From: a bacterium
GTDB taxonomy: Bacteria; UBA8248; JACPRG01; G963555815
Direction of reading: 5' to 3'
DNA length: 64,000 bases
NCBI GenBank assembly: GCA_965261595.1
Contig: CBDHDG010000006.1
Coordinates: 1,152,001-1,216,000 of the forward strand
Positions 16,264 through 41,728 of this stretch are shown one piece after another. The position numbers and the translations under genes were made by a program. Below the pieces are notes generated by a model. The model was not told the origin of the DNA. It searched no databases and saw only the letters and a list, made by a program, of their open reading frames with translations. Position 1 is the stretch's first letter, and each line of letters starts with the position of its first letter.

Positions 16264-16417
16264 CCAAGGTTACCTCATACCCAACTTAGCAAACGGCATT
16301 CCCGGTTCGCAACATTAGTTTCTTTCGTGATTATGCCTTTGACGCAGTAAGACACAAGATATAGGTGCGATTTTGAGACACTACATGTTGTGGTTATCCA
16401 ACAGGAGGGGGTCACTT

Positions 16418-16633
16418 TTAGGGACCCGTGGAACCACATATCCTCCCATTGATGATGGCTGGTGGCCCGACGTAAGAGCCCCGAATTTCGAGTGGGATGC
16501 GTTTCTTCGGCGGTTTCTTATTCCTTATCCCCATCAAGTAGAAACCCGCATAGAAGAGAAGATCAATAACCCTAGAGGCTGCTTCGGAGATGAACCATTC
16601 AAAAACGTCAAATCCTTCGCATTTTGCTTCCAT
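16418..16633 (-). CDS. Cassette A passenger: small hypothetical protein (71 aa)
   Basis: Strong AAGGAGG RBS 9 nt before the ATG; hydrophobic stretch followed by a basic patch. Confidence 0.55.
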   Translation of the reverse strand: MEAKCEGFDVFEWFISEAASRVIDLLFYAGFYLMGIRNKKPPKKRIPLEIRGSYVGPPAIINGRICGSTGP

Positions 16634-16672
16634 TGCCCCAGTCCTCCTTCAAGGTTGGGTGGTGATGGAACC

Positions 16673-16704
16673 GCAGCGCCAGGGGCGGGATCCCCTGGCG
16701 CTGC
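16673..16704. terminator. GC-rich hairpin between the cassette A passengers
   Basis: Perfect 13-bp stem gcagcgccagggg/cccctggcgctgc; no clear U-tract. Confidence 0.45.
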
Positions 16705-16726
16705 ACTTGTAAATCTTATTTTCCAC

Positions 16727-17077
16727 TTATTTGCACGAGATGAACTCGCACAACGTCTCAAAAACCTTGAATTCCCCTTCAAAACGGAAAGTCGTAGAGC
16801 CAGGGATGCTCTTCAGGTATTGGAATCCTTTTGGATGCTCACTCACCATGAAAATACGCCATTTCTCCTTTGCGTTTCGGTATCCAAGTTTATACAAAGC
16901 TACCAAATCGCGATCGTCCAACATGCGAAGTATGAGTTTTCTTCGTTCCAAATCCACATAAGCGGGGCTGTACACCGCACCTTTTCCGATAAAACAGGCC
17001 TTGTTGGATTCTCCAGCCATGACGGCGGAAGATGCGATGAGGGCAGTTGTAAGTATGCAACCGCCGATAGTACGCAT
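16727..17077 (-). CDS. Cassette A passenger: secreted hypothetical protein (116 aa)
   Basis: Signal peptide MRTIGGCILTTALIASSAVMA; Cys near both ends of the mature part. Confidence 0.65.
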   Translation of the reverse strand: MRTIGGCILTTALIASSAVMAGESNKACFIGKGAVYSPAYVDLERRKLILRMLDDRDLVALYKLGYRNAKEKWRIFMVSEHPKGFQYLKSIPGSTTFRFEGEFKVFETLCEFISCK

Positions 17078-17367
17078 GGGCAGACCCCCAGAAAATCGAG
17101 GTTGACACGGGCTTGGGGATTTGCTACAAGGAGGGTCTGTGAGGTCCTCTCTTGTAGCAACGCCCCGGGGTTCCCTCGGGGCTTCCACCCTTTGAAGTTC
17201 CATATACCACATGTAGTGGGTCGGATTCAATTTTCGAGGGACCACCATATCTTGTGTCTTACTGCGTCAAGGGCATAATCACGGTTTCTTTCGCCTCGCC
17301 GCCAGCCGCCGAACGCCTCCCTGAACACCGGAGGCTCTCCCGGAAGGCCATCGGTCCGGAGGGGGGC

Positions 17368-17400
17368 TTGATCGCCTGCCGTCAACACGATACATTGTGG
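17368..17400 (+). promoter_or_regulatory. Putative recA sigma70 promoter with overlapping palindromic box
   Basis: TTGATC-N17-TACATT; acacgatacattgtgg at 17385-17400. Confidence 0.5.
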
Positions 17401-17466
17401 TTCGCGTGGGTCCTCGAAGGCGCTTCGGCCGACACCTTTCCGACCCCGAGCAAGGGGAGGCTCTGA

Positions 17467-24978: not shown

Positions 24979-25647
24979 TTTGTTTCCCCACTTGGTGTCA
25001 AAAGATTGTCGGGATGGAGCTTCTGGAGGGCCCCTGCCCTCTGAACAAGCGGCAGCGGTGTTTCGAAGCGCTACAGGAAGCCCACAATACCGTTGGAGGA
25101 GGTGGCGGTCTGAAGGAAAGGCGCTGCCGAGGCCGCTAATTAGATCAACCAGAGCCAGTCTATTTAATTCTCCCTGTCGAGATGGAAGACGAGGTGCACC
25201 CTCCACTTGTGCCTTCGTCTCCGGCTTCGTGGTAACCGGCAAAGGGTATTTCCAACGCGCCCAGCAACAGCAAGAACAGGAGAGCACCGAGAATGATCTT
25301 CATTCCAGACTTCCCCCAATTCGCGAATGTGGGCGAGCGGTGGACGCTCGTAGCAGCCCTTCTCGGCTGGTATGGGTCATCCTCGACGGTCGGAGGGTCG
25401 CGGCCCTTGGTCTTGAATCCTTTGCTTAACCGGAATTTCCCATATCAACTTGCTTGCGTGGTTTCCGGTCCCCTTTCCCGATGAAAACCATTTGATCCCC
25501 TTCCAATGGGCTTGTCAACAGCCTTCCAACCCTCCGTAACAGGGGGCTGACGGCCATCGGCTGGCCCAAAGGGCGGACCCTCGCCCTTCGGTCTCCTTTG
25601 TCCACTTTCATTCCGGCCTTCATCTTCATGGCCGGTTTCATTTTTTT

Positions 25648-26555
25648 CGGAATTATGTACTTGACGCAGACGACCACAACATGTAGATCGTCCCCGCGTC
25701 TCGGCTGACCACAAGATGTAGGGGCATGCTTCAACTCAAGTCATGGTGGAGTTGGATTCGCAATTATGCGCTTGACTCAACCGAAGAGGGATCATACAAT
25801 GACTGAATCATGCTCAATTGGCTTCGCAAAGTCGCCCTCTTTTTGGCGGGTGAATTACTGCGGAGCTGGATATGGCCCATTGCGGTCACGGCGGCTGGCG
25901 TCATGATCGGTTTTGCGCAACATATCCAGTTGTTCAACCTATATGTTGGAGCGGTCATTCTGTTTTCAGTTTCCTCTATGGGATTGTTGCGATTCAGCGA
26001 ATGGCGGTATCGTAATAGAGTTGCGGATATGCTTAACTTTCATAGTGTGAGAACTGACAGAATAATCGACAAAGCTGGTGTAGTAAAATCACTGCGGATT
26101 GGTGCTACGTTTAACAACAAAGCTCTTTTCCCGGTGACATTTGAGGTTGTAAATGTCGTCTCAACATTTGATAAGTTGTACCCGACAAAAGAGCCATATG
26201 CCAAGAATAGCTATACCATCCCTGCAGGAGGGATGGGGTGGTTTGACGATCACTACATATCCTATAGAGCAGAAGAGAAGCGGCGTTTTTGAGGGCGGTC
26301 TTGAATTTGAGTTTAAGTACGGAAGAAAAGGAAAAACCAACAACACATTGCATATAAACAAAAAGTTGTTTTTACACTTCAATGAAAAGGGCGATATTCA
26401 GCGCGTGGATTTTATCGATCAATGAAACCGAACGATCTGATAGAGCGCATCTTCTGGAAACGGATCGATGGAAGCATGCCCCTACATCTTGTGGTCAGCC
26501 GAGACGCGGGCGCGACCTACATGTTGTGGTCGTCTGTGTCAAGTATATAAATACG
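25648..26555. mobile_element. Transposase-free IS1595-like cassette B (908 bp)
   Basis: 85-bp IRs (about 78/85) at 25648-25732 and 26471-26555; 8-bp TSD attttttt at 25640-25647 and 26556-26563. Confidence 0.92.
25810..26425 (+). CDS. Cassette B passenger: low-GC membrane-anchored hypothetical protein, frameshift near 26260
   Basis: Two N-terminal TM segments then a beta-rich domain; continues as PIEQKRSGVFEGGLEFEFKYG in a second frame. Confidence 0.65.
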
Positions 26556-26564
26556 ATTTTTTTA

Positions 26565-27464
26565 GGTGATTGTAAAAGATATGACACCGGATTAGGCTGG
26601 TGTCGTGGACCTGAAGAGCTTTGAAGTCCTTGTAAAATCGGAAGCTACAGCGAGACGCCATCTGCTCATGGCGTGTCAGAAAAACGGGCGTAAAATCTGC
26701 CCTCGTTGTGAGGGTCGAAAACGCTACGTTTTGGGCACGCGGGGGCGCTTTCGCTGCGCTGGGTGTCGGTACACCTTCGGGCCGTTCACGGGCCGCTGGC
26801 TGGGCCAACTTCGCCTCTCGGCCCGGCAGTGGCTTTGGGTGGTGAAGCTCTTTGAGCTGGAGGTCTCGGCCCGCAAGATGGCCCAGCAACTCGCCGTGAG
26901 CTATCCGACAGCGCTGCGGGCCGTGACGACGCTCAGGCGCAGTCTTGTGGCCGGCACGCCGGGGGGACAGGAGCTTCTTCGAGGGGAGGTGGAGGCGGAC
27001 GAGGCCTACTTCGGGGGCAAGCGCAAGGGCAAGAGAGGCCGAGGCGCAGCGGGTAAAGTCCCTGTTTTCGGCATATTGGAGCGGGGCGGCCGGGTGAAGG
27101 TGGAGGCGGTCGGCAACGTCAAGGCCCAGACCCTTTTGGCCTCCACCGTGAAGTTGGTCCGTCGGGGCAGCGTGGTCTACACCGACCGCTACCGGGTCTA
27201 TGACGCCCTGATGTTCTGCGGCTATCGCCACTTGCGGGTGGATCATGATCGGCGCTTCAGTCGGGGCAAAGTGCACATCAACGGCCTGGAAGGCTTTTGG
27301 GCCTACGCCAAGGAGAGGCTCATCAAACATCATGGGGTGTCCAAAGAGCGGTTCCCCCTCTACCTGAAGGAGATGGAATTCCGTTACAATCACCGACACC
27401 AGGATCTCTTTCCCCTGGTGGTACAACATCTCACTCAATTGGTGTCAAAACCTTTATAATCCCC
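26565..27464 (+). mobile_element. IS1595-family IS (900 bp)
   Basis: 24-bp IRs ggtgattgtaaaagatatgacacc / ggggattataaaggttttgacacc (19/24); TSD ttttttta/ttctttta (7/8). Confidence 0.9.
26605..27459 (+). CDS. IS1595-family transposase
   Basis: CPRC...CAGC, EVEADEAYFGG, KRGRGA.GK, YTD, HINGLEGFW, EFRYN. Confidence 0.95.
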   Translation: MDLKSFEVLVKSEATARRHLLMACQKNGRKICPRCEGRKRYVLGTRGRFRCAGCRYTFGPFTGRWLGQLRLSARQWLWVVKLFELEVSARKMAQQLAVSYPTALRAVTTLRRSLVAGTPGGQELLRGEVEADEAYFGGKRKGKRGRGAAGKVPVFGILERGGRVKVEAVGNVKAQTLLASTVKLVRRGSVVYTDRYRVYDALMFCGYRHLRVDHDRRFSRGKVHINGLEGFWAYAKERLIKHHGVSKERFPLYLKEMEFRYNHRHQDLFPLVVQHLTQLVSKPL

Positions 27465-27916
27465 TTCTTTTATTTGGGCTTATGCAGAGGGCACAACGCC
27501 GAAAACCAAAAACACTCCGACAACCAAACCCGTTGCTTAGCCGTGTTTCATTTCGCTTCTCCCCTGACGGCTGATGAACCACAAATCGGGCGCGCCGCGC
27601 GCACCACAACCCGCGTTCGCCCGGCGGAGTCGGCCGCATCTCCCACGAGCGCGAACGGCATGGCCCCGCAAACGACCGAGGTCACGGCGTTCCGAACGTC
27701 CAACAACTTACCGGACGCAAGACTCGCCATCGGATTCAGCCAATCCCCGCGTCGTCACTCGTCTTGAGCAAGAGAGCGACACCCCCCGGGCATTCCTGCG
27801 CCGCCGTTCGGCCGATCTTTTCCCCCTTATTATTTAACCTCTACCGGGAGTAAGAATTTCCAGACCCACATGCGGCGCAGGAAGTCCTTGTCCGCACCTT
27901 TGAAGGAACCCGGTTC

Positions 27917-34150: not shown

Positions 34151-34578
34151 GATGTCGCTCCTCCCACCTCAAACCCATTCCTAAAGAGGACGCGGCGGGC
34201 TGGCCGGTCCATGCGCCATCAATCCGAACGGCCGGGGCGCCGGGACCTTGAAAACCTACTTCGCGCGCCACCAGGTCCCGGACATGTCCGGGTCGCCCAT
34301 GCTGAGGAGGTATTTCCCCTGGGCGTCTTCCTGCATATAGGCGACGCCCGACGCCCTTCTGCCGTCGGCGTAGAAGCCGCTCGTCCGATTGCTGTCGAAG
34401 AAGATCCGGCCTTCCCGGATGCTTAACGTCCCCGCGGCCCTCCACCGGGGCGTGATGATCTCGTACGTTCCGTCCTCCCGGATGATCCACTCGGCCCCGA
34501 CGTTCGTTGTGCTCCCCCGCTCTAGGGTTTTGTTGGACACTCGATTGATCCATGATTCATGGAGAAAGGGGTGTCGCG

Positions 34579-34965
34579 ATGAACGAACAAAAGCAAGAGG
34601 GGGCTTTGGCGGAGGGCGCCCGCAGGGCGAACGGAGCCAAGGCCCCAGGGCATCGCAGTGAGCGGGGTCGGTTCTCCTGCCAGCGCAAGCGGGAGGCGGT
34701 CCTGCGTCTTTTGCGGGGCGAGAGCCTGGAGACGCTCTGCCGCGAGTTGGGCACGACAGCGGCTCGGCTTTCCGCCTGGCGCGAGGCGTTCCTTCGCGGG
34801 GGCGAGGCGGCGCTCAAAGCCCGCCCGGCGGATGAGCGGGACGAGGAGAACGCCCGGCTCAAGGCCAAGGTGGGCGAACTCACGATGGAGGGCGAGGTCC
34901 TGCGGGAGAAGATCGACCGCCTGGAGGCCGGCCGCCCTTTAGCCGGCAGGAGGTGGAGGCGATGA
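34579..34965 (+). CDS. IS3-family OrfA (HTH)
   Basis: RFS..RK.EAVLRLLRGESLE..REL...L..WR; LKAKVGELTME. Confidence 0.9.
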   Translation: MNEQKQEGALAEGARRANGAKAPGHRSERGRFSCQRKREAVLRLLRGESLETLCRELGTTAARLSAWREAFLRGGEAALKARPADERDEENARLKAKVGELTMEGEVLREKIDRLEAGRPLAGRRWRR

Positions 34966-35870
34966 GTCAGGCCCGCTTCACCTCCACGGGCAGAGCCTAC
35001 GGCCTGAAGCGGGTGTGCGCCCTTTGGGGCTTGGCGCGCTCCACGGTCTACGCGCAACGGCGGCGAGAGGCGGTCCCCGTTCATGAACGCCCCACGCCCA
35101 ATAAGCGCGGCCCTGTGGGCCCGTGCACCGATGCGGAACTCCTCGGCCACATCCGGCAGGTCCTGGAGGACTCTCCCTTCCATGGCGAGGGCTACCGCAA
35201 GGTGTGGGCGAGGCTGCGCTTCGCGGGCATCCGCACCAGCAAGGAGCGGGTGCGTCGCCTGATGCGGGAGGCGGGGCTTCAGGCCCCTCACCGGGTGGGC
35301 AAACCCCGAGGTCCCAAGGCCCACAACGGGACCATCCGCACCGAGCGGCCCGACCGAATGTGGGGTACGCACATGACGACGACGGTGACCACCGAGGAGG
35401 GGATGGCCTCGGTGTTCGTGGCGGTGGATCACTGCTCGGTGGACTGCGTGGGGATCCATGCGGCCAAGAGCGGCAACCGCTTCGAGGCCCTGGAGCCGAT
35501 CCGGCAGGGGGTCGCCGAGCGCTTCGCCGGCTTGGAGGCGGACGTCGCCGAGGGGCTTAAAGTTCGTCACGACCACGGCCCCGCCTATCTGTCCGATGAC
35601 TTTCAGCGGGAGATCGCCTACCTGGGCATGACCAGTTCGCCCAGCTTCGTGCGGGCGCCCGAGGGAAATGGCTACTGTGAGTGGTTTATCCGCATCTTGA
35701 AGGAGAATCTCCTGTGGGTGCGCTCTTTCGCCACCGTAGAGGAACTGCGGTGGGCGCTGCTTGAGTTCAAAAACCTGTACAACCATCATTGGATTCTCGA
35801 GGGCTACGGCTACCGAACGCCGGCCCAGGCAAGGCAGGAAAAACTCGCTCAAGTTGCGGAGGCCGCATGA
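34962..35870 (+). CDS. IS3-family OrfB integrase core (first catalytic Asp replaced by His)
   Basis: GYRKVWARL, WGTHMT (copy 2 WGTDMT), HDHG, PEGNG..E. Confidence 0.9.
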   Translation: MSQARFTSTGRAYGLKRVCALWGLARSTVYAQRRREAVPVHERPTPNKRGPVGPCTDAELLGHIRQVLEDSPFHGEGYRKVWARLRFAGIRTSKERVRRLMREAGLQAPHRVGKPRGPKAHNGTIRTERPDRMWGTHMTTTVTTEEGMASVFVAVDHCSVDCVGIHAAKSGNRFEALEPIRQGVAERFAGLEADVAEGLKVRHDHGPAYLSDDFQREIAYLGMTSSPSFVRAPEGNGYCEWFIRILKENLLWVRSFATVEELRWALLEFKNLYNHHWILEGYGYRTPAQARQEKLAQVAEAA

Positions 35871-38569: not shown

Positions 38570-38942
38570 ATGTCCAGGACCGTTGTCACGCCGGACGGAA
38601 TCGGAGATCCCGTCACGCCCTATTCCCACGGAATCCTGACCGATTCCAAAGAAATCCTCTTCCTCGCGGGACAGGTCCCGATCGACAAGGACGGCAACAT
38701 CGTCGGAAGCGGAGACATCGAGGCCCAGACCCGGTGCGTTTACGACAACCTGGAAGCCGTCCTCGCAAAAGCGGGGATGGGCTGGTCCAACGTCGTCAAG
38801 TTCAACATCTATATGAAGAGGAAGGAAGACCGGGACCGGTTCACGGCGCTGCGCGAGAATGACCTGTTCGGGAAATTCTACCCCGGCGGTGACTATCCCC
38901 CGAGCACGCTGGTCTTCGTGGATCTCTACAAGGAAGAATTTC
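38570..38942 (+). pseudogene. RidA family protein truncated by cassette C
   Basis: PYSHG, AGQV, PPSTLV.V.L; the final (L/I)EIE strand is replaced by the cassette end. Confidence 0.8.
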
Positions 38943-39379
38943 CGGAGTTATATACTTGACACAGACGACCACAACATGTAGATCGCGTCCGCGTCTCGGT
39001 TGACCACAAGATGTAGGGGGGAGGTTTTTCGAGGGATCATCGGGGCTGACCCCGGCGCCGTGGCCTTTTTTGTGGCAAGTGTTTTTTTATGGGCTTGGCT
39101 TTTAGATTCAGGGATGGGATTTCTTTATTCTCACATTTTGGGTCAATCTCCAAATGATTGACCATCTGCTTGATCTTACCCCTCTTGATATCGGATTGTG
39201 ATTTTGAGCCGTGCTCCCCTTTTGGCAATGAGGGGAAGGATTTCTCCCCAAATTTTACGCAGTAATAGTGGTCAGTCGTTTCAATCTCGTGTCCTTGGGC
39301 ACACTTCTTGAGCATGTCAAAGACATTTTTGAGCTTAACTTGGCCAAAAGAGCCCAAACGCCCTAAGCCGCCAAGAGGT
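38943..39379. mobile_element. Truncated cassette C (one end of the cassette B family)
   Basis: 38943-39018 closely matches the cassette B IR; the other end is missing, cut by IS3 copy 2. Confidence 0.85.
39037..39357 (-). CDS. Cassette C passenger: low-GC protein with HicA-like pattern
   Basis: VKLKNVFDMLKK...TDHYYCV...LP..H...DIKRGKIKQMVNHLEI; TTG start inferred. Confidence 0.5.
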   Translation of the reverse strand: MGSFGQVKLKNVFDMLKKCAQGHEIETTDHYYCVKFGEKSFPSLPKGEHGSKSQSDIKRGKIKQMVNHLEIDPKCENKEIPSLNLKAKPIKKHLPQKRPRRRGQPR

Positions 39380-39445
39380 TCCCCCGCTCTAGGGTTTTGT
39401 TGGACACTCGATTGATCCATGATTCATGGAGAAAGGGGTGTCGCG

Positions 39446-39832
39446 ATGAACGAACAAAAGCAAGAGGGGGCTTTGGCGGAGGGCGCCCGCAGGGCGAACG
39501 GAGCCAAGGCCCCAGGGCATCGCAGTGAGCGGGGTCGGTTCTCCTGCCAGCGCAAGCGGGAGGCGGTCCTGCGTCTTTTGCGGGGCGAGAGCCTGGAGAC
39601 GCTCTGCCGCGAGTTGGGCACGACAGCGGCTCGGCTTTCCGCCTGGCGCGAGGCGTTCCTTCGCGCGGGCGAGGCGGCGCTCAAAGCCCGCCCGGCGGAT
39701 GAGCGGGACGAGGAGAACGCCCGGCTCAAGGCCAAGGTGGGCGAACTCACGATGGAGGGCGAGGTCCTGCGGGAGAAGATCGACCGCCTGGAGGCCGGCC
39801 GCCCTTTAGCCGGCAGGAGGTGGAGGCGATGA
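39446..39832 (+). CDS. IS3-family OrfA
   Basis: One aa different from copy 1. Confidence 0.9.
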   Translation: MNEQKQEGALAEGARRANGAKAPGHRSERGRFSCQRKREAVLRLLRGESLETLCRELGTTAARLSAWREAFLRAGEAALKARPADERDEENARLKAKVGELTMEGEVLREKIDRLEAGRPLAGRRWRR

Positions 39833-40737
39833 GTCAGGCCCGCTTCACCTCCACGGGCAGAGCCTACGGCCTGAAGCGGGTGTGCGCCCTTTGGGGCTTG
39901 GCGCGCTCCACGGTCTACGCGCAACGGCGGCGAGAGGCGGTCCCCGTTCATGAACGCCCCACGCCCAATAAGCACGGCCCTGTGGGCCCGTGCACCGATG
40001 CGGAACTCCTCGGCCACATCCGGCAGGTCCTGGAGGACTCTCCCTTCCATGGCGAGGGCTACCGCAAGGTGTGGGCGAGGCTGCGCTTCGCGGGCATCCG
40101 CACCAGCAAGGAGCGGGTGCGTCGCCTGATGCGGGAGGCGGGGCTTCAGGCCCCCCACCGGGTGGGCAAACCCCGAGGTCCCAAGGCCCACAACGGGACC
40201 ATCCGCACCGAGCGGCCCGACCGAATGTGGGGCACGGACATGACGACGACGGTGACCACCGAGGAGGGGGTGGCCTCGGTGTTCGTGGCGGTGGATCACT
40301 GCTCGGTGGACTGCGTGGGGATCCATGCGGCCAAGAGCGGCAACCGCTTCGAGGCCCTGGAGCCGATCCGGCAGGGGGTCGCCGAGCGCTTCGCCGGCTT
40401 GGAGGCGGACGTCGCCGAGGGGCTTAAAGTTCGTCACGACCACGGCCCCGCCTATCTGTCCGATGACTTTCAGCGGGAGATCACCTACCTGGGCATGACC
40501 AGTTCGCCCAGCTTCGTGCGGGCGCCCGAGGGAAATGGCTACTGTGAGTGGTTTATCCGCATCTTGAAGGAGAATCTCCTGTGGGTGCGCTCTTTCGCCA
40601 CCGTAGAGGAACTGCGGTGGGCGCTGCTTGAGTTCAAGAACCTGTACAACCATCATTGGATTCTCGAGGGCTACGGCTACCGAACGCCGGCCCAGGCAAG
40701 GCAGGAAAAACTCGCTCAAGTTGCGGAGGCCGCATGA
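39829..40737 (+). CDS. IS3-family OrfB integrase core
   Basis: WGTDMT, HDHG, PEGNG..E. Confidence 0.9.
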   Translation: MSQARFTSTGRAYGLKRVCALWGLARSTVYAQRRREAVPVHERPTPNKHGPVGPCTDAELLGHIRQVLEDSPFHGEGYRKVWARLRFAGIRTSKERVRRLMREAGLQAPHRVGKPRGPKAHNGTIRTERPDRMWGTDMTTTVTTEEGVASVFVAVDHCSVDCVGIHAAKSGNRFEALEPIRQGVAERFAGLEADVAEGLKVRHDHGPAYLSDDFQREITYLGMTSSPSFVRAPEGNGYCEWFIRILKENLLWVRSFATVEELRWALLEFKNLYNHHWILEGYGYRTPAQARQEKLAQVAEAA

Positions 40738-40783
40738 GGTCGAATACCCTCACCCGAGTGTCCAATAACCCAGGGGCGGTCCA

Positions 40784-41728
40784 GGGCCTTTTGGGCGGTC
40801 GGCCAACCGGCCGGGTCAGAAGGCATTCGATGTCCCTGTACAAGATGGCGTTGGCCGGAAGCCGAATCGCATAGGAGTAGCCCTCCGCCTCAAGGTATCG
40901 GTACACCTCCGGCTTGGCAAATGCCGCGTCGCCTCGAAAAAACCGACAGACCTTCGCATCCCGGTAGCGAGCTACCACCGGCTCCAATACAGACCACCAG
41001 TCATCAGCGCTGTGGACCTTGCCGTTGCGCAACAGCGCCCGCTCCAGATCGCCAAACTGGTTGAAGCAAAACAGTGGGTGATAGCAGGTGCAGCCGAAGT
41101 GGCCGTTGTAGGAAGAGCCTTCCTGCTCACCGTGGGTCGGGCTGACCGAACTGTCCATGTCCAGGATCAGCTTGCGAATCGGCTTGCGTTTGCGGACACG
41201 ATCCACCAACACACCGGGCAGACCGCTCAGCGCCTTGAGGGGTTAAGGGGCCGGGTGAGGGTCTGCGTCTCGAATCGGCTCATCTGGCTGGTGGAGGCAG
41301 CGGTGTGATACTTCGCTCGCCCCCCAACCACCTGACGCATGGCGGGATCGACACAGAGCCGCTCGGCATCATTGGTGTCTTTATATCCTGCCAGGCGGCT
41401 GTAGACCGACTGGCGCACCAAAGCGGTGAGGCTGTGCCGGGTGTTCCCGCCCGTCCGTGAATCGGACAGAAACCCCTCGGCCGCCTTCGTCAGCCCCAAC
41501 ACCTCATCCAGTTCACGATAGGCAAGCAAACCGGCGTCACTCGTAACCTTTGCTCCGTGAAACTCCAGCCTGAGCCGACCGTCGAATTGGAGCCTCAACG
41601 GCCTCTTTTTCGCTTCACCCATCGGGTCCCCTCGCAAGATGATGGCAGGGAGAGGACAACACCTTGATTTTACACGAGAAAACGGCCTTCGGGGCGTTAA
41701 AAATTATCATCCATATGGGAAATGCGGG
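40784..41728 (-). mobile_element. Truncated IS1380-family element with frameshifted transposase
   Basis: End cccgcatttcccatatgg; MGE...[48 protein letters not shown]; frameshift near 41240; 3' part cut by IS3. Confidence 0.88.

Follow-up and report, generated by a model that had tools for sequence, protein, structure and literature searches.

Transposase-less cassettes of the IS1595 family

The window, by which we mean the whole stretch of 64,000 nucleotides that was analysed, holds three cassettes, here called A, B and C, which by the sequence of their ends are transposase-less elements of the IS1595 family, elements of a known kind. G000 denotes the genome containing the window and G003 another genome of the same family. 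The features of the cassettes are as follows.

16326..17283, plus strand: cassette A, 958 bp, transposase-less, upstream of recA; 8-bp duplication at 16318-16325 and 17284-17291
25640..25647: target-site duplication of B, 8 bp; second copy at 26556-26563
25648..26555, plus strand: cassette B, 908 bp, transposase-less IS1595-family element with 11 genomic copies
25648..25673, plus strand: left terminal inverted repeat proper of B, 26 bp, with TTGAC inside; common to the genome's autonomous IS1595 elements
25759..25800, plus strand: nested second IS1595-type end in B, box-less; sigma70-like promoter at 25772-25800 (10 of 12) before the cargo gene
25810..26292, plus strand: cargo ORF of B, 160 aa, with no NCBIfam or Pfam match
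38943..39380, plus strand: left 438 bp of cassette C, followed by an IS3-type element; intact 1205-bp copy at G000:C7:1038945-1040149

Cassette A is present in the genome in 10 copies (7 of 958 bp and 3 of 1315 bp) and cassette B in 11 copies of 907-908 bp, at 99.8-100% identity; both insertions are AT-rich, the GC content of B being 45.8%, against 63.1% for the window. Perfect 8-bp target duplications flank 9 of the 10 A copies and 6 of the 11 B copies, and several of the other duplications are exchanged between copies. A search for a transposase inside A or B gives no PF12762 match, the ORFs of the cassettes match no family in NCBIfam or Pfam, and the window from 15500 to 42000 gives no match to a structured RNA in Rfam. 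As the first 26 bp of A and B match the ends of autonomous IS1595 elements in the same genome, both are taken to be non-autonomous IS1595 cassettes; from these shared ends we infer that the cassettes are probably mobilised in trans by the cognate transposase. The term 'mobile insertion cassette' and the group names ISNwi, ISNha5 and ISSod11 for these ends are reportedly those of Siguier et al. 2009. In related cassettes the cargo consists either of orphan genes or of a DNA methylase that has an Mrr-type domain. The cassette type of end is also found on autonomous elements of G000 (C7:637984-639734, C6:703409-705509 and C5:10860-12674); the transposase of the second of these and its relative in genome G035 score above the cut-off of NF033547.

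The surroundings of the cassettes show several further features. Cassette A lies between a gene for a TPR protein and recA-recX, 183 bp upstream of the recA start (window 16326-17466), and is spanned by one long plus-strand ORF (16373-17278), which has no family match. In B, one base at window position 26260 is missing from the contigs of 2 of 4 runs, and one genomic copy of B is 907 bp long; given this missing base, other copies may have a single gene in place of the 160-aa ORF and an overlapping ORF of 90 aa. Some copies of B have swapped target duplications with one another, as have copies of C, which points to rearrangements, or to swaps in the assembly, at the cassettes (G000 C6:1667271, C7:905605; C3:129361, C7:8746, C7:29393; window 38935-38942, C7:1040150). 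A second IS1595 element, of another group, adjoins B on the right (26565-27467, with a 284-aa transposase at 26605-27459); it has about a dozen copies and different, box-less ends. Just to the left of B is a 177-bp repeat (25425-25601) with 31 matches in the genome, one copy of which lies ahead of an IS1595 transposase at C6:1763037. Window 34513-35870 and 39380-41637 contain a split IS1380-type (DDE_Tnp_1_4) remnant together with two IS3-type elements of identical sequence, the second of which interrupts cassette C.

Paired NrdR-type boxes in the cassette ends

Boxes are scored by the key NrdR positions that they carry (C4, A6, A8, T9, T11 and G13); the score (x/6) is a count of positions, not a weight-matrix rank. 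The boxes of the window are the following.

16352..16367: A-left box 1, at +27 from the end, 6/6
16378..16393: A-left box 2, 26 bp from box 1, outside the inverted repeat, 6/6
17204..17219: A-right box 2, 38 bp from box 1, 6/6
17242..17257: A-right box 1, at +27 from the right end, 6/6
25674..25689: B-left box 1, at +27 from the end, 6/6 NrdR key positions
25709..25724: B-left box 2, 35 bp from box 1 (19-bp spacer, out of NrdR phase), 6/6
26479..26494: B-right box 2, 6/6
26514..26529: B-right box 1, at +27 from the right end, 6/6
38969..38984 and 39004..39019: the two C-left boxes, both 6/6

A preliminary description of the window had reported two NrdR-like palindromes in every cassette end, and all the 16-mers that it quoted are found where it placed them (A-left, A-right, B-left, B-right and C-left). 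Their NrdR signature is complete, with all six key positions present in 10 of the 10 boxes; A+T occupies 5 to 7 of the 8 positions between C4 and G13 (by the NrdR rule, at least about 63%), A-right box 2, at 5/8, being at the limit of this rule. The inner boxes of A indeed lie outside the inverted repeat, which is 37 bp long in this cassette, and the unusual spacings also hold, the boxes being 26 (A-left), 38 (A-right), 35 (B-left), 35 (B-right) and 35 bp (C-left) apart from start to start. For cassette C the same two boxes are found at the left end; the window includes only the left 438 bp of this cassette, so that the right end falls outside it.

The 6.17-Mb genome contains 725 single 6/6 cores, where 717 are expected, and 66 pairs of such cores within 17-60 bp, where arithmetic from the core density gives about 4; 55 of these 66 pairs stand at the cassette-end distances of 26, 35, 36 and 38 bp, many of them being copies of one another. 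The occurrence of NrdR-type box pairs in the cassette ends is thus far beyond chance.

Among 51 genomes of the phylum, two-box cassettes occur in G000 and G003 only. A metagenome scan for two-box ends gives seven matches, of which one is an autonomous left end and the other six belong to a single MITE family, and no further cassettes; plasmid DNA searched with the B end gives short chance matches only, and none of the eight matches to the end pattern in viral contigs carries the box. In four Logan contig sets, whose contigs drop rare forms, no joints corresponding to circle junctions or empty sites of B are found.

Three families of MITEs, 100-101 bp long and flanked by perfect 8-bp duplications, keep both boxes at distances of 32, 33 and 34 bp (one of the families was found with a pattern that demands a second box 20-50 bp away). 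These distances fall within the NrdR window of 14-18-bp spacers, and the MITEs are the only setting among the elements studied in which the spacing follows the NrdR rule. A fourth MITE, of 120 bp, has a 6/6 box at its left end only.

An optional box at +27 in IS1595 ends

A pattern scan of species genomes gives 56 loci, of which about 30 genomes' worth are IS1595 ends when sorted by eye; the box-bearing ends come from Alphaproteobacteria, Planctomycetota, Acidobacteriota, Omnitrophota, Nitrospirota and others. Because such a scan selects for the box, elements were then fetched by transposase protein only and their ends defined from the repeat alone (locus L278, of genome G542, is left out of every analysis). 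Among 115 dereplicated elements, a box of 5/6 or better stands at +27 in 5 of 93 unselected left ends and 4 of 63 unselected right ends, against a background of 0.61 (left) and 0.25 (right) per other offset; at +33 it is found in nine left ends, which is attributed to the -10 hexamer. In a held-out set, made up of 28 new elements drawn from 69 loci, the +27 box is seen in 5 of the 28 left ends and in 7 of the 23 right ends, with a background of 0.18 and 0.14 per other offset, respectively. When the unselected elements with both ends defined are pooled, the box is present in both ends of 7, in the left only of 3, in the right only of 4 and in neither end of 72, a left-right co-occurrence with an odds ratio of 42 (p 6e-6, relatives not being independent).

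Two simpler accounts of the box were considered and rejected. That it is merely a longer inverted repeat is contradicted by the 15 elements in which one end scores 6/6: the opposite end matches at 67 of 90 key positions, but at only 23 of 60 inner non-key positions. That it is a standard part of all IS1595 repeats is contradicted by box-less relatives (the anchored close relatives L170-L181 have it in 0 of 10) and by the drop of left-right identity, which is at background after position 24 in 59 box-less elements. By its offset, its co-occurrence and its key bases, the box is an optional module outside the repeat proper, and selection on the key bases maintains it at the two ends. Boxes in the autonomous elements of G000 score only 4-5/6, with T at position 13 in the left end. 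In some ends the box is shifted by one base or further inward (the right ends of L259 and L260; L066, L082, L247, L376 and L395), and the +27 rule is thus not absolute.

The ISAcr1-like group, for which 41 paired ends were fetched by protein, allows the box to be described position by position. At a threshold of at least 4/6, 23 of the 41 ends have a box and 18 are without one; many of the latter belong to Proteobacteria and Actinomycetes, and the box is thus dispensable in this group. These hosts presumably have nrdR as a rule. In the 23 ends with a box, C4, A6 and T11 are each present in 22, G13 in 23, A8 in 17 and T9 in 20; positions 5 and 12 are A or T, with no constraint at positions 7 and 10. 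The key columns are inflated by the threshold; symmetry, flanks and ranking do not follow from it, and the same symmetry and hierarchy are seen in the measured mutational rules of NrdR (PMC13584703). ISAcr1 itself (an IS1595-family element of an Acidiphilium plasmid, named after its PLSDB annotation) is flanked by an 8-bp duplication and carries a 6/6 box at +27 of each end; at non-key positions these two boxes are not identical.

The host of the window has an nrdR gene (G000 C2:158433-158873; TIGR00244, 196 bits, above cut-off), a point on which the preliminary description had made its NrdR reading depend. More widely, nrdR is detected in 28 of the 30 hosts whose IS ends bear the box (pattern-scan loci, sorted by eye) and in 8 of 8 further hosts. 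A box without detected nrdR occurs in L051, on a 1142-bp contig of an nrdR-less Bacteroidia bin, and in two elements of genome G072. A clade of 10 elements in 8 genomes of a Bacteroidia order is box-less, and nrdR is not found in any of these 8 genomes; this loss is a single event in one clade, and it coincides with a change of promoter type. The class of G075, taken as an nrdR-positive control for this clade, gives 2 weak matches in 300 genomes, too few to inform the comparison. In L327-L338, which are ISAcr1-like elements of the Bacteroidia order, TTGAC is lost from the repeat and most have TAnnTTTG near the transposase start, which we take to be the Bacteroidetes promoter motif; by its sequence, the end promoter of these elements appears to have been refitted to the host sigma factor.

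Spacing of the boxes and promoters of the ends

According to Table 5 of PMC12051234, NrdR binds best at spacers of 14-18 bp, again near 24-27 bp for some proteins, and worst at 19-20 bp; according to PMC13584703, a single box is not bound, NrdR needing two, and the sequence of the linker is irrelevant. The single ribonucleotide reductase gene of the host has a canonical 31-bp box pair, and at 30 nrdJ loci of the host phylum a distance of 31-33 bp separates the boxes in 39 of 61 candidate pairs, with none at 26 or 35 bp. The distances in the 22 distinct two-box ends of G000 and G003 are 26 (3 ends), 35 (11), 36 (6), 37 (1) and 38 bp (1), or about 2.5 or 3.5 helical turns; the corresponding spacers of 10, 19, 20, 21 and 22 bp lie outside the windows in which NrdR binds well, and none of the 22 ends has an NrdR-compatible distance of 30-34 or 40-43 bp. 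Box 1 is 6/6 in 19 of these 22 ends, in which box 2 had been selected as 6/6. This spacing, set against the 31-33 bp of the nrdJ pairs, rejects a tandem NrdR operator within each end. The avoidance of phase within ends is suggestive, not significant (about 0.18 by chance), since the spacings derive from about four ancestral linkers.

The preliminary description had further proposed that TTGAC and the tandem boxes of each end form an inward promoter repressed by the host. This proposal is not supported: the spacing is wrong, TTGAC also occurs in the inverted repeat of box-less relatives, and a promoter scan finds none at either end of B, only the internal one at 25772-25800. The left ends of autonomous elements have a good -10 hexamer 17 bp behind TTGAC, with the transposase or its leader next in line, and box 1 overlaps the -10; in the cassettes the -10 has decayed.

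Three G000 transposases (C7:639734, C6:703409 and C5:10860) are preceded by leaders of about 160 bp in which both strands are open; an ATG directly follows the -10, and the opposite strand has a conserved small ORF. Elsewhere in G000, canonically spaced NrdR-type pairs occur outside nrd genes (C2:98756, C1:205130, C4:889628, C7:790278, C7:799300 and C4:419204, with spacings of 31, 31, 31, 31, 32 and 42 bp, respectively); they lie upstream of an HU gene, of a vsr and C5-methylase cluster, of an Eco57I-type restriction-modification gene and of three regions without family matches.

A proposed NrdR bridge between the two ends

The reading that we favour, and to which we give an even chance, is that host NrdR binds one box in each end, a dATP-loaded tetramer bridging the left and the right end of the element. 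A wider proposal, put forward tentatively and with somewhat less than even confidence, is that IS1595 transposons of many phyla have recruited NrdR, a universal repressor that senses dNTPs, as a transposition accessory, an end clamp that would gate synapsis and transposase expression by the dATP pool, and that the cassettes have added an out-of-phase second pair of boxes for a second clamp. The observations that support the bridge are the +27 offset, the NrdR-type symmetry, the co-occurrence of the box at both ends, and box pairs that are out of phase within an end and in phase between the ends of MITEs. Counting against it are the box-less ISAcr1-like ends in hosts that presumably have nrdR, the boxes of L051 and G072 without detected nrdR, the incomplete boxes of the autonomous elements of G000 and the 120-bp MITE with its single full box.

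As described in PMC9110341, a distance of 80 A separates the two DNA-binding heads of the NrdR tetramer, and each box is kinked by about 90 degrees, giving a turn of 180 degrees; according to the NrdR papers, binding requires that the protein be loaded with both dATP and ATP. If a tetramer joined a box of the left end to a box of the right, the element itself serving as the linker, a single box per end at equal offset is the arrangement to be expected. The spacers reported in PMC12051234 stop at 27 bp, boxes farther apart being beyond this measured range; with a kilobase of flexible DNA between the ends, we infer that the two end boxes could act as a pair.

Such a loop would, in an autonomous element, extend over the -10 of the transposase promoter as well and thereby repress this promoter. 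The cassettes and MITEs have no transposase to repress, so the benefit there would be end pairing, probably in that the ends are held in register for a transposase supplied in trans; that the cassettes have retained and doubled their boxes likewise points to a need for them in mobilisation. The second boxes, standing half a helical turn out of phase, could form a second bridge while avoiding a useless U-turn within one end. In MITEs of 100 bp the binding of NrdR would fold the element and place the two repeats side by side. Bound NrdR may promote jumping or block it; either way, transposition would follow the dNTP pool.

Alternative binders and roles

The main rival to the NrdR bridge is that the boxes are the transposase's own inner binding sites, recognised for example by its N-terminal zinc ribbon, retained at the two ends in some lineages and doubled in the cassettes to attract scarce transposase, the likeness to NrdR being convergence. 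This is the fallback of the preliminary description; it is still viable but weakened, and we regard it as rather unlikely, though well worth weighing. A fixed position of +27 at both ends, with retention in MITEs and cassettes, is typical of a site required in cis; NrdR and the transposase both have zinc ribbons, box 2 is often a direct repeat of box 1, and the spacing within ends is wrong for NrdR. The distribution of the box within the ISAcr1-like group, moreover, approaches that of a clade trait, which is what a transposase site would show, and in one branch the box is near-universal. Against these points, most related elements are without the box, including close relatives (55-70% identical) that have no substitute inner motif either, while the same motif recurs in transposase groups less than 40% identical, with different termini. 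On a FastTree tree of 115 transposases the trait changes 16 times, a count that includes three doubtful rows (G0_C6_355843, L206 and L165). With these three dropped, no transposase column tracks the box in a comparison of 20 box-bearing with 92 other rows: the best column differs by 0.38, against 0.42 for the 95th percentile of shuffled labels, and a residue signature for the box is rejected as no better than shuffles. Also against a transposase site are the two-fold symmetry of the box, with NrdR's own hierarchy, and the lack of significant similarity between the sequences of NrdR and transposase (best E 0.07).

That NrdR only silences the inward promoters of the ends (for transposase, passenger or read-through), with no pairing of ends, was the main idea of the preliminary description and seems improbable. 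In its favour, box 1 overlaps the -10 hexamer that stands 17 bp behind TTGAC in the left ends of autonomous elements, passenger genes are driven from some right ends, several cassettes have a further TTGAC directly next to box 2, and the in-phase pair of the MITEs could mute read-through; however, single boxes are unbound and spacers of 19-20 bp give the weakest binding, the B ends have no scorable promoter while the cargo promoter is box-less, and right-end boxes have lost the letters of the -10 yet keep the key bases. Another host protein with a similar palindromic site, or a neutral relic, is more improbable still: the occurrence of the box is patchy, even where the host is expected to have nrdR, and no cassette-encoded candidate binder is found, but the conservation pattern is exactly that of NrdR and the key positions are fixed across 22 diverged ends whose linkers vary.

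Relation to known systems

How the jumps of insertion sequences are timed to host replication is a standing question; Dam or DnaA sites are known links between the two, and the beta clamp is reportedly another. If the NrdR bridge is correct, a dNTP sensor in both ends would be a new link of transposition to host replication. For NrdR, which has until now been studied as a repressor of ribonucleotide reductase genes, it would mean a moonlighting role of an architectural kind, and it would be, as far as literature searches reach, the first NrdR role outside promoter repression and the first nucleotide-pool switch on an insertion sequence. If instead the transposase is the binder, the box would be an undescribed inner site of a poorly studied family, and a warning that predictions of NrdR regulons will pick up IS ends. 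The preliminary description had known of no account of such a control at IS ends, in agreement with literature searches that show no NrdR-IS link: a full-text search for NrdR with IS1595 and broader searches for NrdR with transposons give none within the library searched.

The cassettes resemble the non-autonomous passenger derivatives of IS1595 in their 8-bp duplications, in repeats of about 26 bp common to the autonomous elements of the same genome (which encode transposases with Zn_ribbon_IS1595 and DDE_Tnp_IS1595 domains), in their AT-rich orphan cargo and in their many near-identical copies; the features of the family are those given in PMC8101967. They differ from the known derivatives in the one or two NrdR-type boxes inside each end of the present elements. 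The boxes in turn resemble NrdR operators (PMC9110341, PMC12051234, PMC13584703) in being 16-bp partial palindromes with six key bases, at least 5/8 inner A/T in all window boxes and, in autonomous left ends, an overlap with a putative sigma70 -10. They differ from them in number and spacing, with one box per end in autonomous elements or two boxes 26 or 35-38 bp apart in cassettes, where operators have 31-33 or 42 bp, and in lying in transposon ends, not nrd promoters.

The closest parallel is ArgR at cer of ColE1 in Xer recombination, as described in PMC2409434. There too the box of a metabolic repressor occurs once per site, near the recombinase core, and ArgR is proposed to synapse two sites, each with a single Arg box. 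The cer system differs in using a tyrosine recombinase, not a DDE transposase, in having PepA as its main architectural protein, and in placing the Arg box 98 bp from the core, whereas the NrdR-type box is adjacent. The role of ArgR was shown experimentally, whereas that of NrdR is a proposal, and the same source gives a warning on likeness to a box, a 16/18 Arg-box look-alike beside loxP having failed to bind ArgR. The NrdR bridge can be tested directly: NrdR binds boxes across species, according to PMC13584703, and ISAcr1, which unlike the cassettes is autonomous, belongs to a different transposase group and has one box per end, carries the same design in a culturable host.
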